IMG/VR virus record: IMGVR_UViG_3300020219_000001
Reading direction: 5' to 3' (one strand)
DNA: 64,000 nt
DNA from: an uncultured virus (IMG/VR IMGVR_UViG_3300020219_000001)
Taxonomy: Duplodnaviria; Heunggongvirae; Uroviricota; Caudoviricetes
The position numbers were made by a program, and so were the translations under genes. Under the pieces are notes generated by a model, which had not been told where the DNA came from, made no database searches, and was given only the letters and a program-made list of their open reading frames with translations. Positions 1-59,554 of the stretch are shown one piece after another (the first letter of the stretch is position 1; the number at the start of each line of letters is the position of its first letter).

Positions 1-588
1 GTGAGCACCTCGACCGTCGCGGGAAGATCGGCAGCGACTCGCGACCAGGGCGCAGCACCTCGACCAGGTGAGCGCCGACGGCCGCGACCAGGTGAGCACC
101 TCGACCAGCGACGGCCGCTGATCTTCCGCACCTCGACCAGCGACGGCCGCTGATCTTCCCTCGACCGTCGCGAGCACCTCGACCAGGGCGCAGCACCTCG
201 ACCAGGTGAGCGCCGACCGTCGCGGGAAGATCGGCCGCGACCAGGTGAGCGCCGACGGCCGCTGATCTTCCCTCGACCAGGGCGCAGCACCTCGACCGTC
301 GCGGGAAGATCGGCAGCGACTCGCGAGCGCCGACGGCCGCGACCAGGTGAGCACCTCGACCAGGGCGCAGCACCTCGACCAGCGACGGCCGCTGATCTTC
401 CCTCGACCGTCGCGAGCACCTCGACCAGGGCGCAGCACCTCGACCGTCGCGGGAAGATCGGCAGCGACTCGCGAGCGCCGACGGCCGCGACCAGGGCGCA
501 GCACCTCGACCAGCGACGGCCGCTGATCTTCCCTCGACCGTCGCGGGGGAAGATCGGCAGCAAGCGCCGACGGCCGCGACCAGGGCGC
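1..588. repeat. Modular GC-rich repeat array 1 (runs off the window start)
   Basis: Built from GCACCTCGACC followed by AGGTGA, AGGGCGCA, AGCGACGGCCGCTGATCTTCC or GTCGCGGG(G)AAGATCGGCAGC in variable order; no unique spacers. Confidence 0.95.
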
Positions 589-624
589 AAACGAAAACGG
601 CCGCCGCTAGATGCGACGGCCGTT
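589..624 (-). terminator. Intrinsic terminator closing the 1696-589 cassette
   Basis: Minus strand AACGGCCGTCGC-ATCTA-GCGGCGGCCGTTTTCGTTT, 25 nt after the stop of 649..1188; identical copy at 2171-2206. Confidence 0.8.
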
Positions 625-648
625 GTGCGTTGTTGGTTGCGTTGCGCC

Positions 649-1188
649 CTAGTTAGTGCGATAGATGAAATAATCGCCCGACTCGTTTTCTTCGTGATCG
701 TAGGAAGCCAAGAAATGACCCCTACCATCGGTACTGGTCGCCGATTTGACAAAATCGTCAAAGCCGCACGTTCCCTTAATGATGGACATAATCGCATCAT
801 TCGCGCCTTCGCACTTATCGGCAAGCGCCTCAAAGACGGTATCGTCGATACCAGTCTCACCACTGAGAAAGCTGGCATTGAACGCAAAAAGCGACTGTTC
901 GACCTGATCCTTACAAAGCGCATCCGCCTCATCATCGGTGCAGATGAGATATTCGGCGCGACCCTCAGTGATGCGATAACCGGTGCCGCCGTAGTTCTCC
1001 TCAATTTCGACACCATCAGGCGCACCGGAATTGCCGTTCTCAATGTCCCAGAGCAGAAAGGCCGCACGAGCCTTATCTTCGTCATCTTCCGCACTTCCGC
1101 GGATTCCGCGCAGAACGGCCTGGTAGGTGTCACCGGAAAGAACGGAAGAATCGAACAATGTGGTCAAGGCGTCAAAGATGTCACTCAT
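649..1188 (-). CDS. Acidic phage hypothetical protein (179 aa)
   Basis: AGGAG RBS; ends DGRGHFLASYDHEENESGDYFIYRTN; followed by a terminator. Confidence 0.85.
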   Translation of the reverse strand: MSDIFDALTTLFDSSVLSGDTYQAVLRGIRGSAEDDEDKARAAFLLWDIENGNSGAPDGVEIEENYGGTGYRITEGRAEYLICTDDEADALCKDQVEQSLFAFNASFLSGETGIDDTVFEALADKCEGANDAIMSIIKGTCGFDDFVKSATSTDGRGHFLASYDHEENESGDYFIYRTN

Positions 1189-1252
1189 TGCATATCACTC
1201 CTAAGCAGGAACATGAAACCAACCCAGAGAATCGAACCAACCAGCACAGTCG

Positions 1253-1405
1253 TCATTTCGCGACCTCCCACCGGAAAATCGCTGCGACCCACATTCCGCA
1301 AAAAAGCCGCTCGACCTTCACAACCCGCCAACCGTCAAAGGCGGACAATTGCTCACGAACCTCAAATTCCGACTCGCCGAAAAATTCCTTGAAAACGCGC
1401 ACCAT
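1253..1405 (-). CDS. Small hypothetical protein (50 aa, MVRVFKEFFG...)
   Basis: Translated by hand; AGGAGG RBS upstream; below the ORF-track cutoff. Confidence 0.6.
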   Translation of the reverse strand: MVRVFKEFFGESEFEVREQLSAFDGWRVVKVERLFCGMWVAAIFRWEVAK

Positions 1406-1409
1406 TGCA

Positions 1410-1520
1410 TCATCCTCCTAATCCGAAGCGTCGATTGAATCGGATGGTGCGCCACAATGCGTACCACCGTGCTTGAGCGTCATTACCGTTGCGACGTTTG
1501 CGTTTGTACCCGTCCGGCAT
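1410..1520 (-). CDS. Small basic peptide (36 aa, MPDGYKRKRR...)
   Basis: Translated by hand; GGGAG RBS upstream. Confidence 0.5.
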   Translation of the reverse strand: MPDGYKRKRRNGNDAQARWYALWRTIRFNRRFGLGG

Positions 1521-1536
1521 GATCGTTACTCCCGGC

Positions 1537-1620
1537 TTAGAAGGTGCGGACCGCGAAAACCTGCGTTTGCAGGAAGGCCAGAACAATCACTCCAACCATG
1601 AATCCCGTTAAGATCATCAT
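1537..1620 (-). CDS. Small hydrophobic peptide (27 aa, MMILTGFMVGVIVLAFLQ...)
   Basis: Directly follows the conserved CAACGGGAGTCGC leader; single TM-like stretch. Confidence 0.55.
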   Translation of the reverse strand: MMILTGFMVGVIVLAFLQTQVFAVRTF

Positions 1621-1668
1621 TTTGCGACTCCCGTTGTTTGCGTTGCGTTGTTGTTCCCTCGACAATCA

Positions 1669-1696
1669 AACATAGAGCGCATTTAGTTACTTGCAA
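1669..1696 (-). promoter_or_regulatory. Cassette promoter TTGCAA-N16-TATGTT
   Basis: Same geometry as 2516-2543 and 3574-3601; upstream of the conserved leader. Confidence 0.65.
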
Positions 1697-1834
1697 GAAA
1701 CTAGGCGAAAGATTCTAGCTAGATACTACCTAAGTCTATGCGCCGTAAGGAAATAAAACTTCCGAAAAACTTCCTGCGAGCGCCGGAATTGCGACGGAAA
1801 AGCGCCGGAATAACGGCCGCTAGATAGGTGAATG

Positions 1835-2170
1835 GTCGCGAGCACCTCGACCAGCGACGGCCGCTGATCTTCCGCACCTCGACCAGGGCGCAGCACCTCG
1901 ACCGTCGCGGGGAAGATCGGCAGCAAGCGCCGACGGCCGCGACCAGGGCGCAGCACCTCGACCGTCGCGGGAAGATCGGCAGCGACTCGCGACCAGGTGA
2001 GCACCTCGACCAGCGACGGCCGCTGATCTTCCCTCGACTCGCGACCAGGTGAGCGCCGACGGCCGCTGATCTTCCGCACCTCGACCAGGTGAGCACCTCG
2101 ACCAGGGCGCAGCACCTCGACCGTCGCGGGGAAGATCGGCAGCAAGCGCCGACGGCCGCGACCAGGGCGC
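1835..2170. repeat. Modular repeat array 2
   Basis: Same modules as array 1. Confidence 0.95.
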
Positions 2171-2206
2171 AAACGAAAACGGCCGCCGCTAGATGCGACG
2201 GCCGTT
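2171..2206 (-). terminator. Intrinsic terminator
   Basis: Identical to 589-624. Confidence 0.8.
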
Positions 2207-2228
2207 GTGCGTTGTTGTGCGTTGTGCG

Positions 2229-2468
2229 TTATTCGTCCGAATCCTCGCAATCCTCGCAATCCTCGCAATCCTCATCGTCCAGACAATCGTCACCGGTGAG
2301 CGAGTCGATATAGTCGCAATATCCGCGGCAAAGCGCCCGACTCAGTTTGGCGGTATGTTTGACATCTTCCCCCAGATTGATTGCCGGCGGCTTCGGGACA
2401 TCGAACCCGCGAGCGACGGCCGCATTGAAAACTTCCGACATCGTGCGTTCACTGACACCGTCTAACAT
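2229..2468 (-). CDS. Small protein with acidic (DCE)n tail (79 aa)
   Basis: ATG follows the conserved GGGAG leader; the ORF-track extension into the repeat array is spurious. Confidence 0.7.
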   Translation of the reverse strand: MLDGVSERTMSEVFNAAVARGFDVPKPPAINLGEDVKHTAKLSRALCRGYCDYIDSLTGDDCLDDEDCEDCEDCEDSDE

Positions 2469-2515
2469 GGTTGCGACTCCCGTTGTGCGTTGCGTTGATT
2501 CCCTCGACACAATCA

Positions 2516-2543
2516 ACTCTAGGTCGCATCTAGTAACTTGCAA
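2516..2543 (-). promoter_or_regulatory. Cassette promoter TTGCAA-N16-TAGAGT overlapped by a 26-bp palindrome
   Basis: ATCTAGTAACTTGCAAGTTACTAGAT at 2528-2553 is centred on the -35. Confidence 0.7.
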
Positions 2544-2588
2544 GTTACTAGATAAAGAATTCCAAAGATTGCGCATATGCCGGTCGTA

Positions 2589-2812
2589 TCGACCGCGACT
2601 CGCGACCAGGGCGCAGCACCTCGACCAGCGACGGCCGCTGATCTTCCGCACCTCGACCAGGTGAGCACCTCGACCAGGTGAGCACCTCGACCAGGTGAGC
2701 ACCTCGACCAGGTGAGCACCTCGACCAGGTGAGCACCTCGACCAGGGCGCAGCACCTCGACCGTCGCGGGAAGATCGGCAGCAAGCGCCGACGGCCGCGA
2801 CCAGGTGAGCGC
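2589..2812. repeat. Modular repeat array 3
   Basis: Includes five perfect tandem GCACCTCGACCAGGTGA 17-mers at 2648-2732. Confidence 0.95.
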
Positions 2813-2815
2813 ATG

Positions 2816-2846
2816 AAAACGGCCGCCGCATTGAGCGACGGCCGTT
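2816..2846 (-). terminator. Intrinsic terminator, variant loop
   Basis: Same stem as 589-624 with a different loop, followed by TTTT. Confidence 0.75.
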
Positions 2847-2876
2847 GTGCGTTGTTGTGCGTTATGCGTTGTTGCG

Positions 2877-3098
2877 TTACTCTTCCGCGACATCATCGGC
2901 GAATTCAAGCAAGCGCCGTAACTCTTCCCGATTCGCGAGAATGTACTCTGTCAGGCACATATTCGCGCGATGGTGCGCGTGAACACCTAACGCGCGCACC
3001 GCGAATTCATTAACCAGCGACTCGCGATAGTCGATAGCGCGCGCCAGCGTATCGAATTCTTTCCCCTCCGTCACATACACCGTTTTCGTTGTAATCAT
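2877..3098 (-). CDS. Small hypothetical protein (73 aa, MITTKTVYVTEGKEF...)
   Basis: Conserved leader at 3104-3116. Confidence 0.75.
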   Translation of the reverse strand: MITTKTVYVTEGKEFDTLARAIDYRESLVNEFAVRALGVHAHHRANMCLTEYILANREELRRLLEFADDVAEE

Positions 3099-3130
3099 CG
3101 GCCGCGACTCCCGTTGTGCGTTGTGCGTTG

Positions 3131-3271
3131 TTAGTTGGTCAAATCTTCCGCATTCTTGCAAAGCGCCTGCGCGATCTTCAGCGCGTCGCTATGATCTTCA
3201 ATTTCCAGAATCGCGACTCCGTCGCGATAGATGATATAAAATCCGTTGCCTGCGCCTAATTGAATCAACAT
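3131..3271 (-). CDS. Small hypothetical protein (46 aa, MLIQLGAGNGF...)
   Basis: Conserved leader at 3277-3289. Confidence 0.7.
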   Translation of the reverse strand: MLIQLGAGNGFYIIYRDGVAILEIEDHSDALKIAQALCKNAEDLTN

Positions 3272-3348
3272 TGTGAGCGACTCCCGTTGTGCGTTGTTGT
3301 GCGTTGTTGTGCGGCCGGCCGGAAGATCGGCCGGCCGTTGCGTTGTTG

Positions 3349-3531
3349 CTAGATTCCACAAGCTTCAAAAAAGCGCGTTTCGTCGAAAGCGCCATTTTGT
3401 GATTTGAGCGACTGCGCCAGCGCCTTTACCATCTGGACGGCCGCCGCATAGGACATCTCGCCGATGGTGCGCTGATAGTTCAACTCGATTCGCATGGCTT
3501 CGGCAATGGCTTTGTAATTCTTGCGACTCAT
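3349..3531 (-). CDS. Small phage early protein (60 aa)
   Basis: MSRKNYKAIA...FDETRFFEACG pattern resembles a recurrent small phage protein type; conserved leader at 3537-3549. Confidence 0.8.
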   Translation of the reverse strand: MSRKNYKAIAEAMRIELNYQRTIGEMSYAAAVQMVKALAQSLKSQNGAFDETRFFEACGI

Positions 3532-3573
3532 TGTGAGCGACTCCCGTTGCGTTGTTGTTTCCCGAACAATTAA

Positions 3574-3601
3574 ACTCTAGTTCGCTTTTAGTAACTTGCA
3601 A
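3574..3601 (-). promoter_or_regulatory. Cassette promoter TTGCAA-N16-TAGAGT with a 20-bp palindrome
   Basis: TAGTAACTTGCAAGTTACTA at 3589-3608. Confidence 0.7.
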
Positions 3602-3637
3602 GTTACTAGCTAGAAAATAATTGCTAGATAGGTGAAT

Positions 3638-4090
3638 GGTCGCGACCAGGTGAGCGCCGCTGATCGGCCGCGACCAGGTGAGCACCTCGACCAGGGCGCA
3701 GCACCTCGACCAGGGCGCAGCACCGCGACCAGGTGAGCGCCGACGGCCGCTGATCTTCCGCACCTCGACCAGGGCGCAGCACCTCGACCGTCGCGGGGAA
3801 GATCGGCAGCAAGCGCCGACGGCCGCGACCAGGTGAGCACCTCGACCAGCGACGGCCGCTGATCTTCCGCACCTCGACCAGGGCGCAGCACCTCGACCGT
3901 CGCGGGGAAGATCGGCAGCGACTCGCGACCAGGTGAGCGCCGCTGATCTTCCCTCGACCGTCGCGAGCACCTCGACCAGGTGAGCACCTCGACCAGGTGA
4001 GCGCCGCTGAAGATCGGCCGCGACTCGCGACCATGGCGCAGCACCTCGACCAGCGACGGCCGCTGATCTTCCGCACCTCGACCAGGTGAG
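3638..4090. repeat. Modular repeat array 4
   Basis: Same modules as arrays 1-3. Confidence 0.95.
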
Positions 4091-4223
4091 CGCCCGTAGG
4101 TGAGCGCCCGTAGGTGAGCGCCCGTAGGTGAGCGACTAGGCTAAGATCGGCCGCGACTAGGTGAGCTATGCGCCCTAGTTGCTAGCTTGTGCGTTGCTAG
4201 TTGCTAGTTGCTAGTTGCTAGTT
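4084..4223. repeat. Short tandem repeats (AGGTGAGCGCCCGT)x3 and (GCTAGTT)x4
   Basis: Directly visible; the array decays into CTAG-rich sequence. Confidence 0.85.
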
Positions 4224-5270
4224 CCCTCGACCAGGTGAGCTAGTCGCGAGTAGCAAAGCTAGGTGAATGGTCGCGACCAGGAAGCAAAGCTAGGTGAATG
4301 GTAGCCTAGCTAGAATTGACGTAAGTCTAGCAGTCTCAATATGAGACAAGATACATTACTAAGTTAGTGATGATTCGCAAGTCGTTGCTATCAAACGAGT
4401 TACATTGTGGACGCGCGCGTCCACATTCAGCGACTCCCTCGCGCACGGTTAGAGCGCATCTACCACCTGTAGTCATTATGACTACAGTCCTGCCCTACAA
4501 CCGGCACATCCGGCACAACCCCACCCACCCGCACAGGTGATACCATCCACCTATCTAGTGTACATGGTACACCCCACCCAGGTGGCATAGCTACTACAAT
4601 CCCACCCCACCTGTATGGGTAGTGCAGGATGCAGGGGATTCTCTCGTTGTTCGTCAAGAGATTCAGATGTAGTGAATGTAATGATTATGATGTAACATAT
4701 TGATACTACAATACTTACATTCATTAGAATGCACACATTCCTCACCTTCCTCACATTCCTCACAACCGAGGGGGAGGGTCAAATCGGAGCATCCGACCCA
4801 GCCGGTATAACCCCTCCAACCCCCAGCCGTTTCCTCGCGCGGCGCTCCACTCCGCGGGAGGGACCCACGCGGTACGGCGAGCGGGGACAATCACCGCAGG
4901 AACCGCGGCGAATCGGAGCTTCAATCACCGCATGAGCGGGCGGCGCGCGGCGGCCGCGGGCGAATGCGCAGCGGCGTGCGCCCAGAAGCTCGATCCGACC
5001 GGCAAGGCTCTCGATCGTGCGCGATGACGGGAGGTGGATGGTACCGCGTTTGTATCAACGGGGACCCGGTCAAGGAGAGGGGAGGGTCAAACTGGAGGGT
5101 GTCCCAAGGGGACCCACGTGTCAGGAGACGCACGAGGATGGCTCAGGATCGCTTCCGAGCGACACCCTGGTGTGGTGAGACCTATCGAGGCGTTTGAAGC
5201 GATCCTGGAGGCTCACGGGAGCTAAGTGACTTCCAAGTGACTAGGAAGTCACTTGCCGCCGCGTCCGGAG

Positions 5271-5408
5271 AGTTAGGTAGGTAGCGAGTTAAACCAGCCC
5301 GCATCCGTGTGAAGCGATTGAAATGAATTTTCTTCCTATACGTATTATTCATGCAAGCCTACCTACCTACCTACTTTTCAAATCAATAATATAGGGGTGT
5401 ATAACACG
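5271..5408 (+). promoter_or_regulatory. 138-bp TAGG/CCTA iteron element, copy A
   Basis: Colinear with the reverse complement of 58439-58577; function unproven. Confidence 0.6.
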
Positions 5409-5857
5409 CCTCAAGTCCTTATGTGGCAATGACTTACATAACTTTTTGACCAGTCAAAATCTCCGATTTCGGCCGAGGTGGTCAAAAATGTTCCTACCTA
5501 AAATCCCTCTGGTGGGTGGGTCGCGCCGGCAGCCTCACCACCCATCCGTGGGTGGCTAACACTAACGGGTGGTAACACCTATGGGTGGTGCGCACCTACG
5601 GCCAGTCGAACGGCTGGCCGGTCACGCCCGCGGCGTCGGCGTTCTCCAGCCGATCCATGACCTCCTCCTTGCTTGGATAGCCGCGGGCGACCATGAGCGC
5701 CGCCAGGCGGTCCTGGTCGTCGCGTTCGGTCAGGTCCCTGAACTCGACCACTTCCCCTGGCTCCGTCGCGGAATAGGAACTCGACTTCACCAGGGTTCAA
5801 GATCGTGAGCTTCTTAATCATGGCTTTGGTTCTCCAAGGGATTCTACAACACGAAAC

Positions 5858-5885
5858 TTGACTTGCAAGTTTCTTGGTACATACT
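5858..5885 (+). promoter_or_regulatory. Early promoter TTGACT-N16-CATACT, copy 1
   Basis: AGTTTCTTGGTACATACT identical in four intergenic copies. Confidence 0.8.
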
Positions 5886-5921
5886 TGTCTTGTCGGACCA
5901 ACAAGACTTCAGGATAAAACG

Positions 5922-6611
5922 ATGCTCTACGTCACGTATTTGCGGGTTAGCACACAGAAGCAGGGTGAATCGGGCCTGGGCGTGGACGCCCAACGCACGG
6001 CGGTGACCAAGTTCACTGCGGATGGTAGCGTGCTCGCCGAGTTCGTCGAGGTCGAGAGCGGCAAGAAGGCCGCCCGGCCGCAGCTAAAAGCCGCGTTGGC
6101 ACTCTGCCGGCAGCGCGGAGCTACGCTCGTGGTCGCAAAACTCGACCGCCTCGCGCGAAACGTGCTCTTCACGGCCACGCTCATGGAAGCCGGCGTCGAT
6201 TTCATCTGCTGCGACATGCCTTCAGCCACTCGGCTGACGATCCACCTGCTCGCGGCGATCGCCGAGGACGAGGCTCGACGTATCAGCGCCCGTACCAAGG
6301 CTGCTTTGTCGGAATTGAAGGCGAAGGGAGCACAACTTGGCTCCGCGCGGCCGGGCCATTGGGACGGACGAGAGCATCGACGTGGCTGGAACGGCATTCC
6401 CGCTGCTCGCAAGCTCGCAATGAAGCGAGAAAAGTTGAATCTGAGCTACGCCGAGTCACTTCCCGTGATCCGGGTGCTGAAAGAACGTGCTGCCACCTAC
6501 TTGGAGATCGCTTCGGCGCTCAACGCCCAGGGCATCAAGACACCACGAGGTCACATCTTTACCGCCAGTGCCGTTTGTGAGGTCATCCAACGTCTCGAAG
6601 CCGTTGCCTAA
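5922..6611 (+). CDS. Serine recombinase (resolvase/invertase family)
   Basis: YLRVSTQKQ catalytic Ser motif, ESG..RPQL, AKLDRLAR, E...IS.RTKAAL, short C-terminal helical domain. Confidence 0.93.
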   Translation: MLYVTYLRVSTQKQGESGLGVDAQRTAVTKFTADGSVLAEFVEVESGKKAARPQLKAALALCRQRGATLVVAKLDRLARNVLFTATLMEAGVDFICCDMPSATRLTIHLLAAIAEDEARRISARTKAALSELKAKGAQLGSARPGHWDGREHRRGWNGIPAARKLAMKREKLNLSYAESLPVIRVLKERAATYLEIASALNAQGIKTPRGHIFTASAVCEVIQRLEAVA

Positions 6612-6625
6612 GCAAAGAATTCGCG

Positions 6626-6653
6626 TTGACTACCTAGTTTCTTGGTACATACT
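6626..6653 (+). promoter_or_regulatory. Early promoter, copy 2 (likely leaderless transcript)
   Basis: ATG at 6660 lies 6 nt after CATACT; no SD. Confidence 0.8.
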
Positions 6654-6659
6654 AGATAC

Positions 6660-7931
6660 ATGAACAACAACGACGCTACCTACGACATCCCGAAAGCCAA
6701 TCTTCCTGCCCTTCGTGAGCAGTTCGAGAAGATGGTCCGCAAAGCGAACCGTCTCGGCGCGGAAGTGCCGACGTTGAACATCCATGAGGAGTTCCAACAG
6801 GAGCGCGTTTCGCCGTCCGGCGTCAAGTACATGGCGACGTTCTGCAAGGTCTCGATCGTGGGAGAGGCTCCCAAGCTCGCCGGCTGGAGTCTGGTGGCTG
6901 TGATCGAACCGTTGGGCGACGAAGTGATCGTCCGCACTGTCCCGAATGAAGTCTGCCCGGAAGCGTACCGCAAGACGACCTTCCACTGCGATCACTGCTC
7001 CACGCAGCGTCGTCGCAAGGAAGTCTTCGTCCTCCGGCACGACGAAGGTACTCACAAGCAGGTGGGGCGTCAATGCCTTTCCAACTTTCTCGGCGGCCTG
7101 TCGCCGGAGCGTCTGCTGTCCTGGTATTCGTTCTTCTCATCGGCGGAAACGCTGCTCGGCGAAGCCGGCAACGAGGATTGGGGCAGCGCCGGCGAGAAGA
7201 CTTTCAACCTGGAACTGCTGTTGAAGACGACGGCGATCGTCATCCGCAAGCTCGGTTGGCTGAGCGCCACGAAGGCGCGTGAGATCGCGGAGTCCGGCCG
7301 GCCGCAGATGAGCACTCGCGACATCGTCGTGATGGTGTTGAACCCGCGGAGCCGTCACGATCACGAGTTCATCAAGGAAAACGCTCTCGTTCCTGAAGAA
7401 CGGGACGCGGCCGACACCGCGGCGGCCATCGAATGGGCCGCTAAGCTCGAAGGCGGCACGGATTACGAACACAATCTCGGTGCGATCGCTCGTACCGGGT
7501 TCGCCGAATGGAACCAACTCGGGATCGCGGTAAGTTTGCTCCCGAGCTACCTCCGTCACGTCGAGCGACAGGCCGAGTTCGAGCGTGAACGGGCCAACAA
7601 GGTCCGCGGATACGTCGGAACCGTAGGCGAACGCCGCGGATTCGAGAAGCTCACCGTGCTCGGCACCCACAACTTCGATAGCGACTTCGGAGTTCGCACT
7701 CTTGTCCGCTTCGAGGACGAAGTGGGCAACATTCTGACCTGGTGGACCGGTGAGGTCGGTGAATGGCTCGACAAAGGCAACGTCGTGGACGTTACCGGCA
7801 CCGTCAAGAAGCATGACGACTACAAGGGCACCAAGCAGACCGTGCTCACTCGTGTAGCTAAAGGTCTGCCCAAACCCAAAGGAAAGAAGAAATGTGCCAA
7901 CAAGGATGCCCAAAAGGACATCGCGGCGTAA
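6660..7931 (+). CDS. Phage protein with a Zn-binding motif and C-terminal OB-fold-like domain
   Basis: CDHC...VGRQC; C-terminal GNILTWWT...VTGTVKKHDDYKGTKQTVLTRV. Confidence 0.8.
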   Translation: MNNNDATYDIPKANLPALREQFEKMVRKANRLGAEVPTLNIHEEFQQERVSPSGVKYMATFCKVSIVGEAPKLAGWSLVAVIEPLGDEVIVRTVPNEVCPEAYRKTTFHCDHCSTQRRRKEVFVLRHDEGTHKQVGRQCLSNFLGGLSPERLLSWYSFFSSAETLLGEAGNEDWGSAGEKTFNLELLLKTTAIVIRKLGWLSATKAREIAESGRPQMSTRDIVVMVLNPRSRHDHEFIKENALVPEERDAADTAAAIEWAAKLEGGTDYEHNLGAIARTGFAEWNQLGIAVSLLPSYLRHVERQAEFERERANKVRGYVGTVGERRGFEKLTVLGTHNFDSDFGVRTLVRFEDEVGNILTWWTGEVGEWLDKGNVVDVTGTVKKHDDYKGTKQTVLTRVAKGLPKPKGKKKCANKDAQKDIAA

Positions 7932-8377
7932 GTTTCCCGACTCGTGACACGGAACCCGGCAAGTATGGCTGGGCCGTGGCGATCCACGACTCGGCCGGCT
8001 TGCACCTGATGACGTTGACGAGAGCGACTGAGGAGAAGCTCGCAGATCGAGAGGTCGTTCCTGGCAGGTTCTACAACCCTGGAGGACCTCTCGCGTTGCT
8101 CGGCGTCGTGTGGCCGGATGCTCGCATGGTACCGATGAACTCCCCACGCGACGTGTTCAACCCTGTTGGACCGCGGGCGTGGTCGGATGTGATCCTGAAC
8201 GGTCCAGGACCGTGGGGCTTCGAGGTTCACGACTCCGGCGGCCGGCATCTGTTCACGCTCACCGAGAAGTCATGGATCACGCTGGGGTTGTACATCCCCG
8301 CGACCGTCTGGCCGAAGATCAAGCTCGTCATCCTTGACGAGGACGACGACTACTTTCATTCGACGGAGGACATGTAG
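7892..8377 (+). CDS. Hypothetical protein with an internal repeat (start uncertain)
   Basis: IHDSAGLHLMTLT and VHDSGGRHLFTLT. Confidence 0.6.
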   Translation: MCQQGCPKGHRGVSFPTRDTEPGKYGWAVAIHDSAGLHLMTLTRATEEKLADREVVPGRFYNPGGPLALLGVVWPDARMVPMNSPRDVFNPVGPRAWSDVILNGPGPWGFEVHDSGGRHLFTLTEKSWITLGLYIPATVWPKIKLVILDEDDDYFHSTEDM

Positions 8378-8685
8378 TGCAAACACGCTACGTCTGCGTT
8401 TGGGATTGGTACGAGAGCAAGTTCAAAGTCTTCCAGGTCGTTGGTGAGGAGAGCGGCGGCTTCTTCGTCGGCAACTTCGACGACCGAGTCAAGACGCTGT
8501 TCAACTGTGGCCACTACGGTAGCCGACCCGGCATCGAGATGCAGTGGGTCGCGATCACTCGCAAGGGCGCGGTCGGAAAACGGCGGAAGGATCAAAAGAG
8601 GATCGTGAAGGATTACGAGCAGGAAGTGGCCGCGGCGAGAACCGACCTAGCACTACTCGACAAGCTACACGGAGCACCACTTTGA
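8377..8685 (+). CDS. Hypothetical protein
   Basis: Coupled to neighbours, GGAG RBS. Confidence 0.65.
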   Translation: MQTRYVCVWDWYESKFKVFQVVGEESGGFFVGNFDDRVKTLFNCGHYGSRPGIEMQWVAITRKGAVGKRRKDQKRIVKDYEQEVAAARTDLALLDKLHGAPL

Positions 8686-10094: not shown

Positions 10095-10424
10095 ATGAAG
10101 AAATTCCACGCAGACGAAATGAAGAGGGCCGGCTGGACGATCGACAACCACGCCCACATCGCCTACACCGGTGAGCGGTTCGGGTCTCCCAGCTTCCACC
10201 ACGTTTACACCGAGCTTGAATCAGCGTACCGCCGGTGGATCAAGGGGATCGCGATCAGGTGTGGCGCAGCACTCGACTACGGCCACGACAGCCTCCTGGA
10301 GGACATCTACCGCAAGGCGATGGCGATTCTGGACGCTCCAACCAGTGTCACCGGTAGAAGCCGCAAGGGAGCAGCCGAAATGGTGGATTCCGGTCCTTAT
10401 CCTGTACCACTGAGAGTTGACTAG
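10095..10424 (+). CDS. Hypothetical protein
   Basis: MKKFHADEMK start within ORF 10044..10424. Confidence 0.55.
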   Translation: MKKFHADEMKRAGWTIDNHAHIAYTGERFGSPSFHHVYTELESAYRRWIKGIAIRCGAALDYGHDSLLEDIYRKAMAILDAPTSVTGRSRKGAAEMVDSGPYPVPLRVD

Positions 10425-10444
10425 CTAGTTTCTTGGTACATACT
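10417..10444 (+). promoter_or_regulatory. Early promoter, copy 3 (likely leaderless)
   Basis: ATG at 10451 lies 6 nt after CATACT. Confidence 0.8.
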
Positions 10445-10450
10445 ACAAGT

Positions 10451-11089
10451 ATGAACACAACCAAGACCAAGCCCGACTCGTTCAAAGAAACCCTGACCCG
10501 AATCTTCGAGTCGGTGGAAGACAAGTTCCGCGCCGACGCCGTCGCCCGCTACGTGGCGATGGCTCAGCGGCAGTACGAAGCCTTCACCAAGTTCGCCGCG
10601 GGCCAGGAGCCGGAGCGGGATCGCTACTACCACGATTCGATGCGGGTCCCGGAGTACGTCGGCAACAAGAAGGGCTGCTGGCAGTCCGGCTGGGCCGGCA
10701 TCGTCGCCGCCCACCAGAACGGAGAATGGTTCTGCGACGAAGCCAAGGCGATCAAGGACGCCAACCACCAGGTGGACATGGTCAAGCTCCAGTTCATCTC
10801 GAAGCACGTGAAGAAGCTGGAGAACGCGACCAAGTCGCACAAGGGCAAGCCGAACCACGTGTCCGGCGAACTCGCCCACACGGTACTGGTTGAAGGACAC
10901 CTGAAGGTCGCGTACAAGAACGGCGATTCGTTCGTCCTGACGCTGAGCATGATTGTCAATCACCGCTACTCGCGAGGCTGCACGAGCTTCTACCAGTTCC
11001 CGTCCCGCTTCAAGGACGTGATGCTGAAGGGGAAGCCGGTCACGGGTACCAAGGTTTCGGAAAAGTGGATGGGAGAGCACTTCCAATGA
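10451..11089 (+). CDS. Hypothetical phage protein
   Basis: Strong GC3 codon bias; FYQFPSRF motif. Confidence 0.8.
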   Translation: MNTTKTKPDSFKETLTRIFESVEDKFRADAVARYVAMAQRQYEAFTKFAAGQEPERDRYYHDSMRVPEYVGNKKGCWQSGWAGIVAAHQNGEWFCDEAKAIKDANHQVDMVKLQFISKHVKKLENATKSHKGKPNHVSGELAHTVLVEGHLKVAYKNGDSFVLTLSMIVNHRYSRGCTSFYQFPSRFKDVMLKGKPVTGTKVSEKWMGEHFQ

Positions 11090-20022: not shown

Positions 20023-20337
20023 CTACTCGTCGTCGTCGTCGTCGTCGTCCTCGTCCTCGTCGTAGTAGTCGTCATCGTCATCGTCGTCATCTTCGTCCCA
20101 GTCGTCATCGTCCCAGTCGTCGTCTAGGTCGTCGTCGAGGTCTTCCTCGTCGTCGTAGAGGTCGTCATCGTCGTCCCAGTCGTCGTCTTCGTCCTCGTCG
20201 TCTTCGTCCTCGTCGTCCTCGTCGTAGAGGTCGTCGTCCTCGAAGTCGTCATCGTCGGCGAGCGCATTCACGGGGGTGAATACGTGGTGGCCGCGGCCGG
20301 TAATGGACGGAATCACGAACGGAGCGGTCACACGCAT
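20023..20337 (-). CDS. Extremely acidic low-complexity protein (start uncertain)
   Basis: About 75 residues nearly all D/E, with interspersed W, Y, L, F. Confidence 0.65.
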   Translation of the reverse strand: MRVTAPFVIPSITGRGHHVFTPVNALADDDDFEDDDLYDEDDEDEDDEDEDDDWDDDDDLYDDEEDLDDDLDDDWDDDDWDEDDDDDDDDYYDEDEDDDDDDDE

Positions 20338-51637: not shown

Positions 51638-52203
51638 TGAGACTTTCGAGGGAGAGCGTTGACCGCTTCTTCGATCATAACATCCACATCGAAAGTCGCA
51701 CGATCTTCATCGGCGATGGTGGGGACGACGAGATCGACGGAGTGATTGCTAATGGAGTCATCAAGGCGTTTCATCTCCTTGGTGAGTCCACTGACAAGCC
51801 GATCAAAGTGTTCATCAACAGCTTTGGCGGCTGCTGGTTTGGAGGGATGGCCATCTACGATGCCATCAAGCATTGCCCGTGCGAAGTGAATGCCTACGTG
51901 ATAGGCTCCGCGATGAGTATGGGCAGCGTGATCCTCCAGGCGGCGGACACAAGAGTGATCTACCCAAACGCGACTCTGATGATCCATGATGGATACGAGA
52001 CGCGAGTGGGTGACACTCCGCAGACATTCGCGAACTGGGCTGAGTTCAGCAAGAAGGGTCGCGAGATGATGTACCGAATCTACTCAGGAAGATCGGGTAA
52101 GCCGGTTGCCTTTTGGCGCAAGAAGTGCGGGTCGGACTTCATCCTAACGTCGCAGGAAGCAAAAGAGTTAGGACTGGTCGATTCCATCTATGGAGAGACA
52201 TAG
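51637..52203 (+). CDS. ClpP-family serine protease
   Basis: INSFGG, AIYDAI, AMSMGS (Ser), MIHD (His), EAKELGLVD. Confidence 0.88.
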   Translation: MRLSRESVDRFFDHNIHIESRTIFIGDGGDDEIDGVIANGVIKAFHLLGESTDKPIKVFINSFGGCWFGGMAIYDAIKHCPCEVNAYVIGSAMSMGSVILQAADTRVIYPNATLMIHDGYETRVGDTPQTFANWAEFSKKGREMMYRIYSGRSGKPVAFWRKKCGSDFILTSQEAKELGLVDSIYGET

Positions 52204-52730
52204 CAACCGTTTCGATAGGCCCCGGGCAGCTTAGGCTGCACCGGGGCTTTTTCGTTTGGAAAATTCAGCCAGGCGAACTCGCCCCACCAATCTACGGCAA
52301 CCGCATCATACGCTCGGGCAGCAGTTACCGGATCGTCGAACTGACCAATCGCGTAATTGTACCCACTGACGTAGATTTGTGATAACCATTTTCCATTAGT
52401 CTTGATGAACGACACACCCTTGTATCCAGACGTGTTGTTTTCCGGTAGACCTCTGTTGGCCGCGTTCTGGACTGCGGTGGCTAGCCTCAGGTTTTCTCGC
52501 TGGTTGTTGAGTGTGTTCCGATCCTTGTGGTCAATTCGTCTTCCGTCCGTCTCAACGCCAGCCATCGCCATGATGGCCTTGCTGAGGCGAATGAATTTCA
52601 CTTTCCCGTCGATTCGCACCGACCGATGAGGATAGCCATTGTTGTACGACCACTTGAACTGGTTTAGTTGTTCAAAGAACTCGTCATCAACAAGGGCTTC
52701 CTCATTCTGTGAAAGTGGAAGCTTCTTCAT
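52188..52730 (-). CDS. HNH-AP2 homing endonuclease
   Basis: IDHKDRNTLNNQRENLR, NTSGYKGVS, AARAYD..A...GEFA.LNF. Confidence 0.9.
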   Translation of the reverse strand: MKKLPLSQNEEALVDDEFFEQLNQFKWSYNNGYPHRSVRIDGKVKFIRLSKAIMAMAGVETDGRRIDHKDRNTLNNQRENLRLATAVQNAANRGLPENNTSGYKGVSFIKTNGKWLSQIYVSGYNYAIGQFDDPVTAARAYDAVAVDWWGEFAWLNFPNEKAPVQPKLPGAYRNGCYVSP

Positions 52731-53155
52731 TGCCCATCCTTGAACGGACAACCAAGACACGTCTCGACCAGGACCTTCTTCTGGTAGGTCTCGGCTTGCG
52801 AGCAGTTGCACACGACGTTCACGTCAACGGCCCCGTCGAGGTTCGCCTTGAGACCGTACATTCCCTTCCGGCACGCCGGCCACAAAGGTCGGAACAGGAA
52901 GGGATTCTCAGCGTCTCGCTGGTAGCCGCTGATCTCCGGCGGCTGGGCGTCGGCCTTCTCGTACTCGATGCTGCCGTCCTCGTGGACCTTGGGCGGCTTG
53001 AACAGCCGGCCGGCCACGCGAGGAACAGCATTCATCAAGACCTGCAACGGGTTCTTGAACTGCTTGGCACCATAGACGATCTGGATGCCAGGCGCATCCG
53101 AAGGAGTCACGCTACCAATTCCGGTCAAGGGGCCACTACCATTACAACAGCCCAT
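52727..53155 (-). CDS. Cys-containing hypothetical protein
   Basis: AGGAG RBS; ATGA-coupled. Confidence 0.7.
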   Translation of the reverse strand: MGCCNGSGPLTGIGSVTPSDAPGIQIVYGAKQFKNPLQVLMNAVPRVAGRLFKPPKVHEDGSIEYEKADAQPPEISGYQRDAENPFLFRPLWPACRKGMYGLKANLDGAVDVNVVCNCSQAETYQKKVLVETCLGCPFKDGQ

Positions 53156-58651: not shown

Positions 58652-59554
58652 ATGGAAATCGTCGCCACACTTGATCTCGACCAACTTCTCGAACCGAAGT
58701 ACATCCTCCGCGAACTGAATCGACAGTCCGCCGAGTATCTGGAACTCCGAGATGGGATTCGCGAACTGGGCCTGACGAACTGCGGGTGCGCTCGCTACAC
58801 GGAGGACCCGGACAAGTTCGAGATCGTAGACGGGTGGTTTCGATTCAATGCGATCAAGGACCTCGGCCACAAGTCGATGCCCTTCATCCTGCAACATCTC
58901 ACAGACTCGCAAGCACTGGCTAAGCAGGTCTCGGCTCAGGCACACCGCCCAGAGACGACGCCCGTTCAGATGGCCAGACACTTGAAGCTGTTGCAACTCC
59001 ACTCGCCGGAGATGCGGTTGAGTGACCTGGCGGCTTCCATCCAGAAGTCGCCCGACTGGGTGTCACGGACGCTCGGACTGTTGAACCTCCTCCCTGGAAT
59101 CCAGGAGTTGGTTGACGGCGACAGGATGGCCACGCTCAACGCCTACATGCTCGCCAAGCTGCCCCCGTCGTGGCAAGGGAACTACATCGAGCACGCGAAG
59201 CACATGAACACCAGGGAGTTCAGCGCCCTGATGCGAACGGTGCTAAGAGACATGCGACTCGATCACCGTGCCGGACGCTTGAAGGCCAAGTTCAAATCCT
59301 TCGAGGCCATCCCGCACTTACGGACAGTCAACGAAATCTTAGCGGAGCTTGCAAGTAGCGAGGCGGCTAACACTGAGGTTAATCGGAAGCGAGACCCAAG
59401 AGATGCCTGGGACGCCGCCCTGAAGTGGGTCCTGCATCTGGATGACAAGAGCAAAGAGAAGCAGCGTCGGTTAGCTGAAGACCGTAACCAAAAACACGAG
59501 ATCGAAAGGAAAGCCTATGTCGAAGCGATTGACTCAGTAGTCCCAGACCCTTAA
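58652..59554 (+). CDS. ParB/Spo0J-like protein
   Basis: L..GIRELGL, EIVDGWFRFNA, HTH LSDLAASIQKSPDWVSRTLGLL. Confidence 0.8.
   Translation: MEIVATLDLDQLLEPKYILRELNRQSAEYLELRDGIRELGLTNCGCARYTEDPDKFEIVDGWFRFNAIKDLGHKSMPFILQHLTDSQALAKQVSAQAHRPETTPVQMARHLKLLQLHSPEMRLSDLAASIQKSPDWVSRTLGLLNLLPGIQELVDGDRMATLNAYMLAKLPPSWQGNYIEHAKHMNTREFSALMRTVLRDMRLDHRAGRLKAKFKSFEAIPHLRTVNEILAELASSEAANTEVNRKRDPRDAWDAALKWVLHLDDKSKEKQRRLAEDRNQKHEIERKAYVEAIDSVVPDP

Follow-up and report, generated by a model that had tools for sequence, protein, structure and literature searches.

The left end of a 64,000-nucleotide stretch of DNA from an uncultured virus (IMG/VR record IMGVR_UViG_3300020219_000001; the whole stretch is called the window here) raises the question of what large arrays of short repeats are doing among the small genes of a phage. 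Three transcription units on the minus strand of positions 1–4330 follow one common plan and are separated by four such arrays (A0 to A3). A first-pass annotation of this DNA had proposed that the arrays are homology tracts through which whole cassettes are gained, lost, or reordered, making the locus integron-like. The interpretation favored here, to which we assign a probability of about 0.45, is that positions 1–4330, together with sequence beyond the left edge, form an early accessory battery of the "host-takeover" type, similar to the PeSL elements of T4-type phages, in which the spacers between units have grown into variant-repeat minisatellites.

The three units were recognized from regulatory signals that recur far above chance and lie at or near the coordinates originally given for them, in keeping with the earlier description of a shared TTGCAA-N16 promoter, leader, and terminator. 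The −35 box TTGCAA (3601–3596, 2543–2538, and 1696–1691, minus strand) is located inside a 20-nt palindrome, TAGTAACTTGCAAGTTACTA, that is exact at 3589–3608 and 2531–2550 and carries three mismatches at 1684–1703; these three matches compare with 0.00 expected. After 16 nt, the −35 boxes are followed by the putative −10 boxes TAGAGT (3579–3574), TAGAGT (2521–2516), and TATGTT (1674–1669). The resulting promoter-leader regions, designated P1 (3537–3608), P2 (2473–2550), and P3 (1624–1703), have ~70 positions in common when aligned, and P1 and P2 are preceded by an AT-rich stretch of 40 nt. Each region includes the leader sequence CAACGGGAGTCGC (3537–3549, 2473–2485, and 1624–1636). Five exact copies of this leader were found, all on the minus strand (at 3549, 3289, 3116, 2485, and 1636), against 0.15 expected, and each lies 3–8 nt ahead of an ATG; five open reading frames (ORFs) are served in this way, not merely the first of each unit. 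The units close with a 34-nt terminator pattern that matches three times (0 expected) on the minus strand, at 2815–2848 (T1), 2175–2208 (T2), and 593–626 (T3). In a simple terminator scan, two of the three were called as 12-pair stems with a T run behind them; T3 has such a stem and T run, and T1 and T2 were assigned from the 34-nt pattern and the stem scan. Rfam models searched against 1–6000 at E ≤ 1 gave sub-threshold matches on the terminators and nothing else. From a terminator to the next −35 box is a distance of ~270–480 nt, of which ~220–335 nt is array (A1 and A2). T2 and T3 are identical within a 90-bp exact block that extends into the start of the adjoining array, while their cargo is unrelated. 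The units can accordingly be described, as had been claimed, as self-contained expression cassettes in which one regulatory module is combined with unrelated cargo.

The arrays are non-coding (codon score about −0.1 in all frames) and are composed of short units arranged head to tail in a single orientation. Their core, GGTCGAGGTGC, occurs in 39 exact copies, every one of them on the minus strand and inside 5–4083, with none elsewhere in the 64 kb (0.07 expected). Splitting at GGTCG gave 66 units: 20 in A0 (4330–3610), 11 in A1 (2594–2814, including five consecutive 17-mers), 12 in A2 (1835–2170), and 23 in A3 (1–592, cut by the window edge). Unit lengths range from 13 to 149 nt but are mostly 17–47 nt. 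Exact copies of nine unit types account for 46 of the 66 and the other 20 are singletons, the commonest types being a 19-mer (14 copies), a 17-mer (12), and a 32-mer (5). When 63 units were aligned on GGTCG, a conserved core of ~14 nt, CCTGGTCGAGGTGCT, emerged with variable tails and an invariant GGTCG; the recurring spacings were 17 (12 times), 18 (3), 19 (16), 28 (4), 32 (6), 40–42 (7), and 47 nt (twice). About ten syllables make up the tails, and these recur in the leader, in the 5′ untranslated region (UTR), and in the arm of the terminator. The terminator-arm syllable CGACGGCC, for example, occurs 20 times in the arrays against four in the other 59.6 kb, and further syllables are held in common with the leader (GAGTCGC) and the 5′ UTR (TCGAGGGAA). 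The order of units also shows some grammar: on our own reading of the unit list, 8 of the 11 units with GCCGATCTTCC have the 19-mer as the next unit. GCCGATCTTCC and GGAAGATCAGCGGC are near-complements, and the dyad CACCT-N5-AGGTG is found 11 times in the arrays and not once in the remaining 62 kb. Because of these dyads and near-complementary words, the arrays fold better than shuffled sequences, with RNA folding z scores of −4.0 for A1 and, in A2, of −2.6 for one strand and −2.3 for the other.

Between arrays, exact shared blocks reach 93 bp (1855–1947 = 3741–3833) and 90 bp (546–635 = 2128–2217), and a block of 76–77 bp is repeated inside A3; the proposal that the arrays supply homology was therefore correct. 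Nearly all array repeats are direct, and no inverted repeat of at least 60 nt was found in 1–4400. At each of the three promoters, an array ends 40–135 nt upstream of the −35 box. Within narrow bounds the arrays total 1,601 bp, a figure that increases with 4090–4330 and with sequence to the left of the window. A0 (3640–4330, minus strand, as are the others) is composite: 3640–4090 contains the words of A1 to A3 in 18 units, and 4090–4330 uses other words, namely a 14-mer repeated 3.6 times, seven copies of CTAGCAA, and a duplicated 19-mer. The arrays had initially been assigned lengths of 220–590 bp; their existence is confirmed, but the upper figure is a minimum, given that the leftmost array is cut by the edge and that A0 continues to ~4330. 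A CRISPR array was rejected, the units abutting directly without unique spacers. Two further ideas, an array of exonuclease-barrier motifs and an RNA sponge of the Shine-Dalgarno/anti-Shine-Dalgarno kind, were dropped, as resemblance of short motifs was their sole support. GCGC is scarce outside the arrays (159 observed in 4401–64000 against 303 expected under a Markov model) and occurs 34 times in the 1.6 kb of array, while other 4-nt palindromes are near expectation. A restriction-decoy function for GCGC was set aside because codon effects could account for the deficit outside the arrays.

The cargo of the three cassettes consists of nine ORFs of 23–179 aa, with one to five per unit; they are small and unrelated, as first described, but the suggested maximum of four per unit is exceeded by cassette 3, with up to five. 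All nine have a Shine-Dalgarno-like box upstream, and seven have codon scores of +0.34 to +0.60 in their own frame and negative ones out of frame. In cassette 1 (2877–3531, minus strand), ORFs of 60 aa (3349–3531, score +0.60), 46 aa (3131–3271, +0.56), and 73 aa (2877–3098, +0.38) are each placed behind their own copy of the CAACGGGAGTCGC leader, and a hairpin, GGCCGGCC-GATCTTCC-GGCCGGCC, separates the first ORF from the second at 3336–3313. Cassette 2 (2229–2468, minus strand) encodes a single 79-aa protein with an acidic Cys/Asp/Glu tail (score +0.34) and no family match. Cassette 3 begins with small minus-strand ORFs (1185–1620) of 27 aa (1537–1620, hydrophobic), 36 aa (1410–1520), 50 aa (1253–1405), and 23 aa (1185–1256, hydrophobic), for which the codon score is positive in the 27- and 50-aa ORFs and ambiguous in the 36- and 23-aa ORFs. 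They are followed by the main ORF of the cassette (649–1188, minus strand), encoding an acidic protein of 179 aa with a codon score of +0.60.

Searches of Pfam (E up to 10), PHROG, and PADLOC gave nothing convincing for the nine ORFs; the Pfam scan took in 79 ORFs of the window, and one further ORF was added later. The sole family signal in the cargo was a weak phrog_34049 match to the 60-aa ORF, and stathmin-like matches to Protein Data Bank (PDB) profiles were dismissed as chance. The 179-aa protein has relatives in 11 IMG/VR contigs (36–55% identity over the C-terminal 100 residues), and its ESM Atlas clusters contain viral hypothetical proteins only, which places it in a phage-only family. 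An AlphaFold2 model of the protein (pLDDT 65) had no Foldseek match in the PDB at E ≤ 0.001, and no usable IMG/VR relatives were found for the 73- and 60-aa proteins. The cassettes themselves were recovered independently. Logan contigs from two sequencing runs, X1 and X4, include one contig per cassette (606–1842, 2188–2624, and 2783–3692) with 0 differences, and contigs of both runs reach all six cassette-array junctions, again with 0 differences; the cassettes and their junctions with the arrays are therefore real in independent data.

Elements of the same module also lie to the right of the arrays. What appears to be a decayed promoter-leader copy, judged from its alignment with P1 to P3, is found at 4400–4500 (minus strand), and after it come an ORF of eight codons and a hairpin. 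The promoter core ACTTGCAAGT occurs once more at 5861, where a fourth promoter-like site (−35 box at 5868–5863, −10 box TAGAAT) and a small ORF occupy 5597–5868 on the minus strand, divergent from a serine recombinase gene. This ORF (5821–5597) is frameshifted in the window and encodes one 74-aa protein in contigs of three runs. Position 5754 of the window has one letter more than the contigs of X1, X4, and a third run, X9, and its removal joins the two overlapping frames; the extra letter reflects either strain variation or a mistake in the assembly. Between these elements, 4500–5596 comprises ~1.1 kb without a convincing ORF or an Rfam match, and contains a 19-nt pair 308 nt apart, four copies of CCTA, and a 9-mer repeated 3.4 times; the non-coding stretch 4740–5140 folds no better than shuffled sequences (z −0.7 and −1.2).

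The plan of the cassettes has precedents in phage early regions. According to the sections of Arbiol et al. (2010, PMC2839356) that deal with them, PeSLs equip small ORFs of unknown function with a ribosome site and a stem-loop terminator, together with a strong sigma-70-like promoter, and their recombination was shown experimentally to shuffle genes and yield mini-circles, so the T4-type precedent for cassette shuffling cited in the first-pass annotation is genuine. The locus studied here resembles PeSLs in its repeated candidate sigma-70-like promoters with AT-rich upstream sequence (three near-identical and a fourth with the same core), in the stem-loop and Shine-Dalgarno signals that bracket small ORFs (non-essential in PeSLs, and here nine ORFs without a family), and in repeats that supply homology for modular shuffling. 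It differs in that PeSLs are compact, with the stem-loop in or beside the promoter, whereas here a minisatellite intervenes and the two are 0.2–0.7 kb apart. Shuffling and mini-circles have been demonstrated for PeSLs, while neither was seen in the contigs of the present locus, and its phage is unrelated. A second comparison is offered by Bacillus phage SPO1's host-takeover module, for which Stewart et al. (1998) is cited. In that module, small early genes are organized in several operons with strong promoters and ribosome sites, and the products act on the host (PMC6873191, in its account of the module). The likeness lies in a cluster of small early genes in operons with promoters and ribosome sites of the highly expressed type. 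The differences are that the SPO1 module is terminal, that there is no sequence similarity, and that the part of PMC6873191 concerned with the module describes no repeat arrays between operons.

In the reading that we favor, the locus repeats one control module, in which a terminator is followed in turn by an array, an AT-rich spacer, a promoter, and a leader. As infection begins, a host polymerase of the sigma-70 type would fire the TTGCAA-N16-TAGAGT/TATGTT promoters, as judged from their consensus; later on, the palindrome around the −35 box would probably act as an operator through which they are shut off. Ribosomes would find a strong site in the CA-rich leader, which ends in CAACGGGAGTCGC, and each unit would yield one to five small proteins specific to the phage. 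Transcription would end at the 12-pair hairpin and its T run, and the arrays, which come after a terminator and before the next promoter, would probably be transcribed by read-through only. Slippage and unequal exchange may have expanded partial duplications of the module into the arrays. Continuing exchange would keep them uniform, a view suggested by the 46 of 66 units that are copies of nine types. The modules have 0.2–0.7 kb of homology in common, including exact tracts as long as 93 bp, so cassettes could be deleted, duplicated, or swapped by ordinary homologous recombination, and no site-specific enzyme would be needed. Loss, duplication, and exchange of cassettes by general recombination is thus physically plausible. 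There is in addition about one chance in three that the arrays are also selected as protein-binding sites.

Several observations weigh against this reading. The gain, loss, or reordering of cassettes that had been claimed is not demonstrated in the contigs of four runs, which give weak hints only. No RNA run is among the sequencing runs listed with the locus, so the function of the promoters and terminators is deduced from their consensus. Inside the arrays, short-read contigs are only pieces of 58–118 nt, and the length and order of the arrays consequently come from the assembly of the window alone. No relatives carrying the same arrays were found in the collections searched; at six loci of more distant relatives, which have homologs of a 429-aa neighbor (phrog_2319, 33–34% identity), neither a k-mer test nor TRF nor a repeat search revealed any arrays. 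A repeat of at least 1.6 kb would be a heavy load for a phage if it had no function, which favors a binding platform. Finally, phage T5, in this respect the closest known precedent, carries untranslated repeat regions of 629, 188, and ~1200 bp, including an injection stop signal, among the pre-early genes of its left terminal repeat; in the portions of Davison (bioRxiv 10.1101/866236) that treat them, these regions are conserved and presumed functional.

The searches for relatives covered several collections, from whose scans the window's own record was possibly excluded. In IMG/VR, an exact 24-mer of the array and the promoter palindrome each gave 0 matches, and the single locus returned by a gapped core pattern (L020) proved to be an unrelated 18-bp repeat. 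Scans of metagenome and genome contigs gave 52 and 36 loci, respectively, nearly all of them single matches and mostly high-GC; the two exceptions were L028, where three matches are spaced by 36 bp as in L020, and L035, with two matches. These loci are read as chance matches, a judgment made without opening them. A more suggestive arrangement was found in L012, an AT-rich contig of an unrelated phage that carries a member of the 179-aa family. Here, small ORFs with strong ribosome sites, a terminator, an array of 10.7 copies of a 17-bp unit (1693–1870), and a promoter follow one another in this order, and the 11-nt word of the array recurs as mini-arrays (3474–3502 and 4160–4195) that flank a 220-aa gene without a Pfam family. 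The L012 array hints that arrays upstream of early promoters may be a wider, overlooked theme. In L009, another contig with a homolog of the 179-aa protein, the stretch 8300–8640 is non-coding, lies upstream of early genes, and contains DnaA-box-like words and a 28-bp repeat in 3.3 copies, reminiscent of the T5 repeat regions. No account of such arrays between phage early units was found in the literature searched, a search to which subscription journals and supplementary files were external.

The placement and composition of the arrays raise the main alternative, namely that they are a dedicated protein-binding platform, in which ~63 oriented 14-nt cores, many with CACCT-N5-AGGTG, are bound cooperatively by a phage or host protein. 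Such a platform might gate the early promoters (through shut-off, insulation, or activation) or might provide a plasmid-like prophage with a centromere or a set of iterons; we regard it as a tentative explanation and somewhat unlikely. It would fit the array ends 40–135 nt upstream of each −35 box, the iteron-like combination of an invariant GGTCG, conserved flanks, and variable spacing, the confinement of the dyad to the arrays, the excess self-complementarity (z −4.0, −2.6, and −2.3), and the burden of a repeat load of at least 1.6 kb. The L012 array before a promoter, with its mini-arrays, is the pattern expected of regulator sites. The phage also encodes a resolvase-type recombinase, a P4/D5-type primase-helicase, and a sub-threshold ParB_N-like protein (58652–59554, 23.2 bits against a cut-off of 26.3). 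Iteron and centromere arrays of plasmids and prophages, such as F sopC, R1 parC, the pSM19035 omega heptads, and P1 incA, total 0.1–0.5 kb and are often found upstream of promoters. They too consist of tandem, oriented short repeats with internal dyads and a conserved core, of which 63 putative examples are present here; the present locus differs in having four arrays of mixed unit types with irregular spacing that total at least 1.6 kb. However, the Pfam scan recognized no DNA-binding domain in the window ORFs, cargo included, and no ParA, ParM, or TubZ; it placed no Rep, ParB, omega-type protein, ParA, or partition ATPase within 50 kb of the arrays, and the ParB_N-like gene, below the Pfam cut-off, is 54 kb away. 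Spacings of 17, 19, 32, and 41 nt are out of helical phase, more than 60 sites far exceed the needs of an operator, and the window has no single dispersed copies of the core elsewhere. A broader version would make the arrays a new cis-acting device of the early region, in which cores covered with a small protein of phage or host origin switch the battery on or off, or hold or protect entering DNA, and which also act as "switch regions" for amplification and loss of cassettes as the host changes; this is a doubtful proposition. The T5 regions suggest a genome-end device, that is, a T5-like injection stop or a packaging or end-protection signal beside the genes that enter first. SPO1-like phages package genomes with long terminal repeats, and the large terminase of the window has its best matches in SPO1-like Bacillus phages and some Thermus phages, although at only 24% identity. 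The host-takeover genes of SPO1 are in a 12.4-kb terminal region according to the corresponding part of PMC6873191, and the array words all run one way, as an orientation-dependent signal would. The three T5 regions, as far as Davison's account of them extends, resemble the arrays as non-coding repeats of hundreds of bp to ~1200 bp among the first-expressed small genes, and they include a 9-copy direct repeat. They differ in being defined by inverted repeats, palindromes, and paired DnaA boxes in a conserved order, whereas the words here are tandem, in one orientation, and nearly all direct. The DnaA-box pattern TTWTNCACA occurs once in the 64 kb (12028) and not in 1–4400. Depth in the cassettes is at or below that of the backbone and not the twofold of a collapsed terminal repeat, although contig depth makes this a weak argument. 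A genome-end function is, on balance, very improbable.

The exact tracts shared between arrays also bear on a strong form of the original proposal. In it, selection would act on the arrays as tracts for recombination, after the manner of gene accordions or antibody switch regions, and the locus would be an integron-like exchanger of cassettes, possibly operated by the serine recombinase. Inter-array tracts of up to 93 bp and the identity of T2, T3, and the adjoining array starts over 90 bp despite unrelated cargo speak for this idea. Weak hints also come from depth in the three cassette contigs (41.9, 29.8, and 44.5 in X1 against a backbone of 51.5, and 18.2, 13.6, and 17.7 in X4 against 18.2), where the lower values of cassette 2 are at most a hint of polymorphism given that contig depth is unsuited to ranking genes. 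One junction between words in X4 has no counterpart in the window, and in a contig of X9 the same leader leads into a different sequence; both variants could instead derive from additional cassettes or arrays that this genome carries beyond the left edge of the window. The likeness to an integron is confined to a row of small accessory cassettes of unrelated content. The Pfam scan found no IntI or other tyrosine integrase of the Phage_integrase type, the sole recombinase being a small serine recombinase of the resolvase/invertase type (5874–6611, plus strand; PF00239, E 1.8e-27; phrog_125). No attC-like ends were noted at the cassettes (no attC model was run), and the cassettes are not promoterless, each unit having its own promoter, leader, and intrinsic terminator in place of a common Pc. 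The nearby recombinase gene was correctly reported, and, as stated at the time, no link to the cassettes emerged: it is transcribed away from the early units, its promoter is of a type common to two other plus-strand genes, and neither inverted nor direct site pairs were convincing near the gene or flanking the cassettes. The contigs, moreover, contain no deletion, circle, or reordering, and selection for evolvability is hard to tell from a by-product. We consider this strong form improbable. There is finally the technical explanation that assembly has created most of what is printed as arrays, by inflating or scrambling a short true repeat. It draws on the 58–118-nt array pieces, on the 52 of 89 placed X1 contigs that fit two positions, on the extra letter at 5754 that breaks an ORF and differs from three runs, and on the closest record to the window, IMG/VR contig G001 (41,452 bp, rated 33% complete), which terminates within A0, as its 100% identity to the window begins at 4031. 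Yet the six cassette-array junctions are matched with 0 differences in X1 and X4, and the summed contig depth on array words is several-fold that of the backbone (300 against 51.5 for bin 1–267 in X1), as for truly multi-copy words. Collapse alone would hardly produce four arrays with distinct sentences and unique ends, and an artefact on this scale is scarcely credible.

A second promoter-like element was observed outside the early units. TTGACT-N16-CATACT is contained in a conserved 42-nt block at 5857–5898, 6625–6666, and 10416–10457 (plus strand), preceding the recombinase gene, the gene for the 429-aa protein, and a third site. The stretch with the recombinase gene has other flanks in contigs of X1 and X4, indicating that the gene is also present in other contexts in the same samples. 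The remainder of the window encodes a gpA-type large terminase, a portal, a P22-type coat protein, a tape-measure protein, and a collagen/CBM5_12 fiber, which identify the source as a tailed phage, together with a ClpP-like protease, a P4/D5-type primase-helicase, an SNF2-type helicase, and the serine recombinase. The tape-measure protein and P22-type coat suggest a long-tailed phage. No DNA match to isolated phages was obtained by blastn with window 1–8000. Sampled words of 1–6000 were present at 87–90% in eight microbial-mat metagenome runs and at about a tenth in two soil runs, where a relative matches 1121–1613 at 98% identity. Three further features were recorded. The plus-strand stretch 15078–15217 matches the Rfam tmRNA model with 52.7 bits against a gathering score of 47, covering model positions 1–374 in only 140 nt, and could be a phage-borne tmRNA-like piece or a remnant of an attachment site. 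A minus-strand ORF at 20023–20337 contains a 230-nt run of TCG/GTC-type repeats of 15–18 nt that encodes an Asp-rich acidic repeat. An HNH endonuclease with an AP2 DNA-binding domain (52188–52811, minus strand), likely a homing endonuclease, is encoded between the ClpP-like protease and the replication genes.

The cassette battery of this microbial-mat phage thus follows a known plan of phage early regions, and the large variant-repeat arrays between terminator and promoter are the new part. Batteries of small, self-promoted early genes are where phages keep host-takeover and anti-defense functions, and how genes are gained and lost there is an active question. If the arrays are merely tolerated products of slippage, the locus would be an ordinary early region with odd spacers; if they are real at full length, they would provide either a strong substrate for recombination or a large binding platform.

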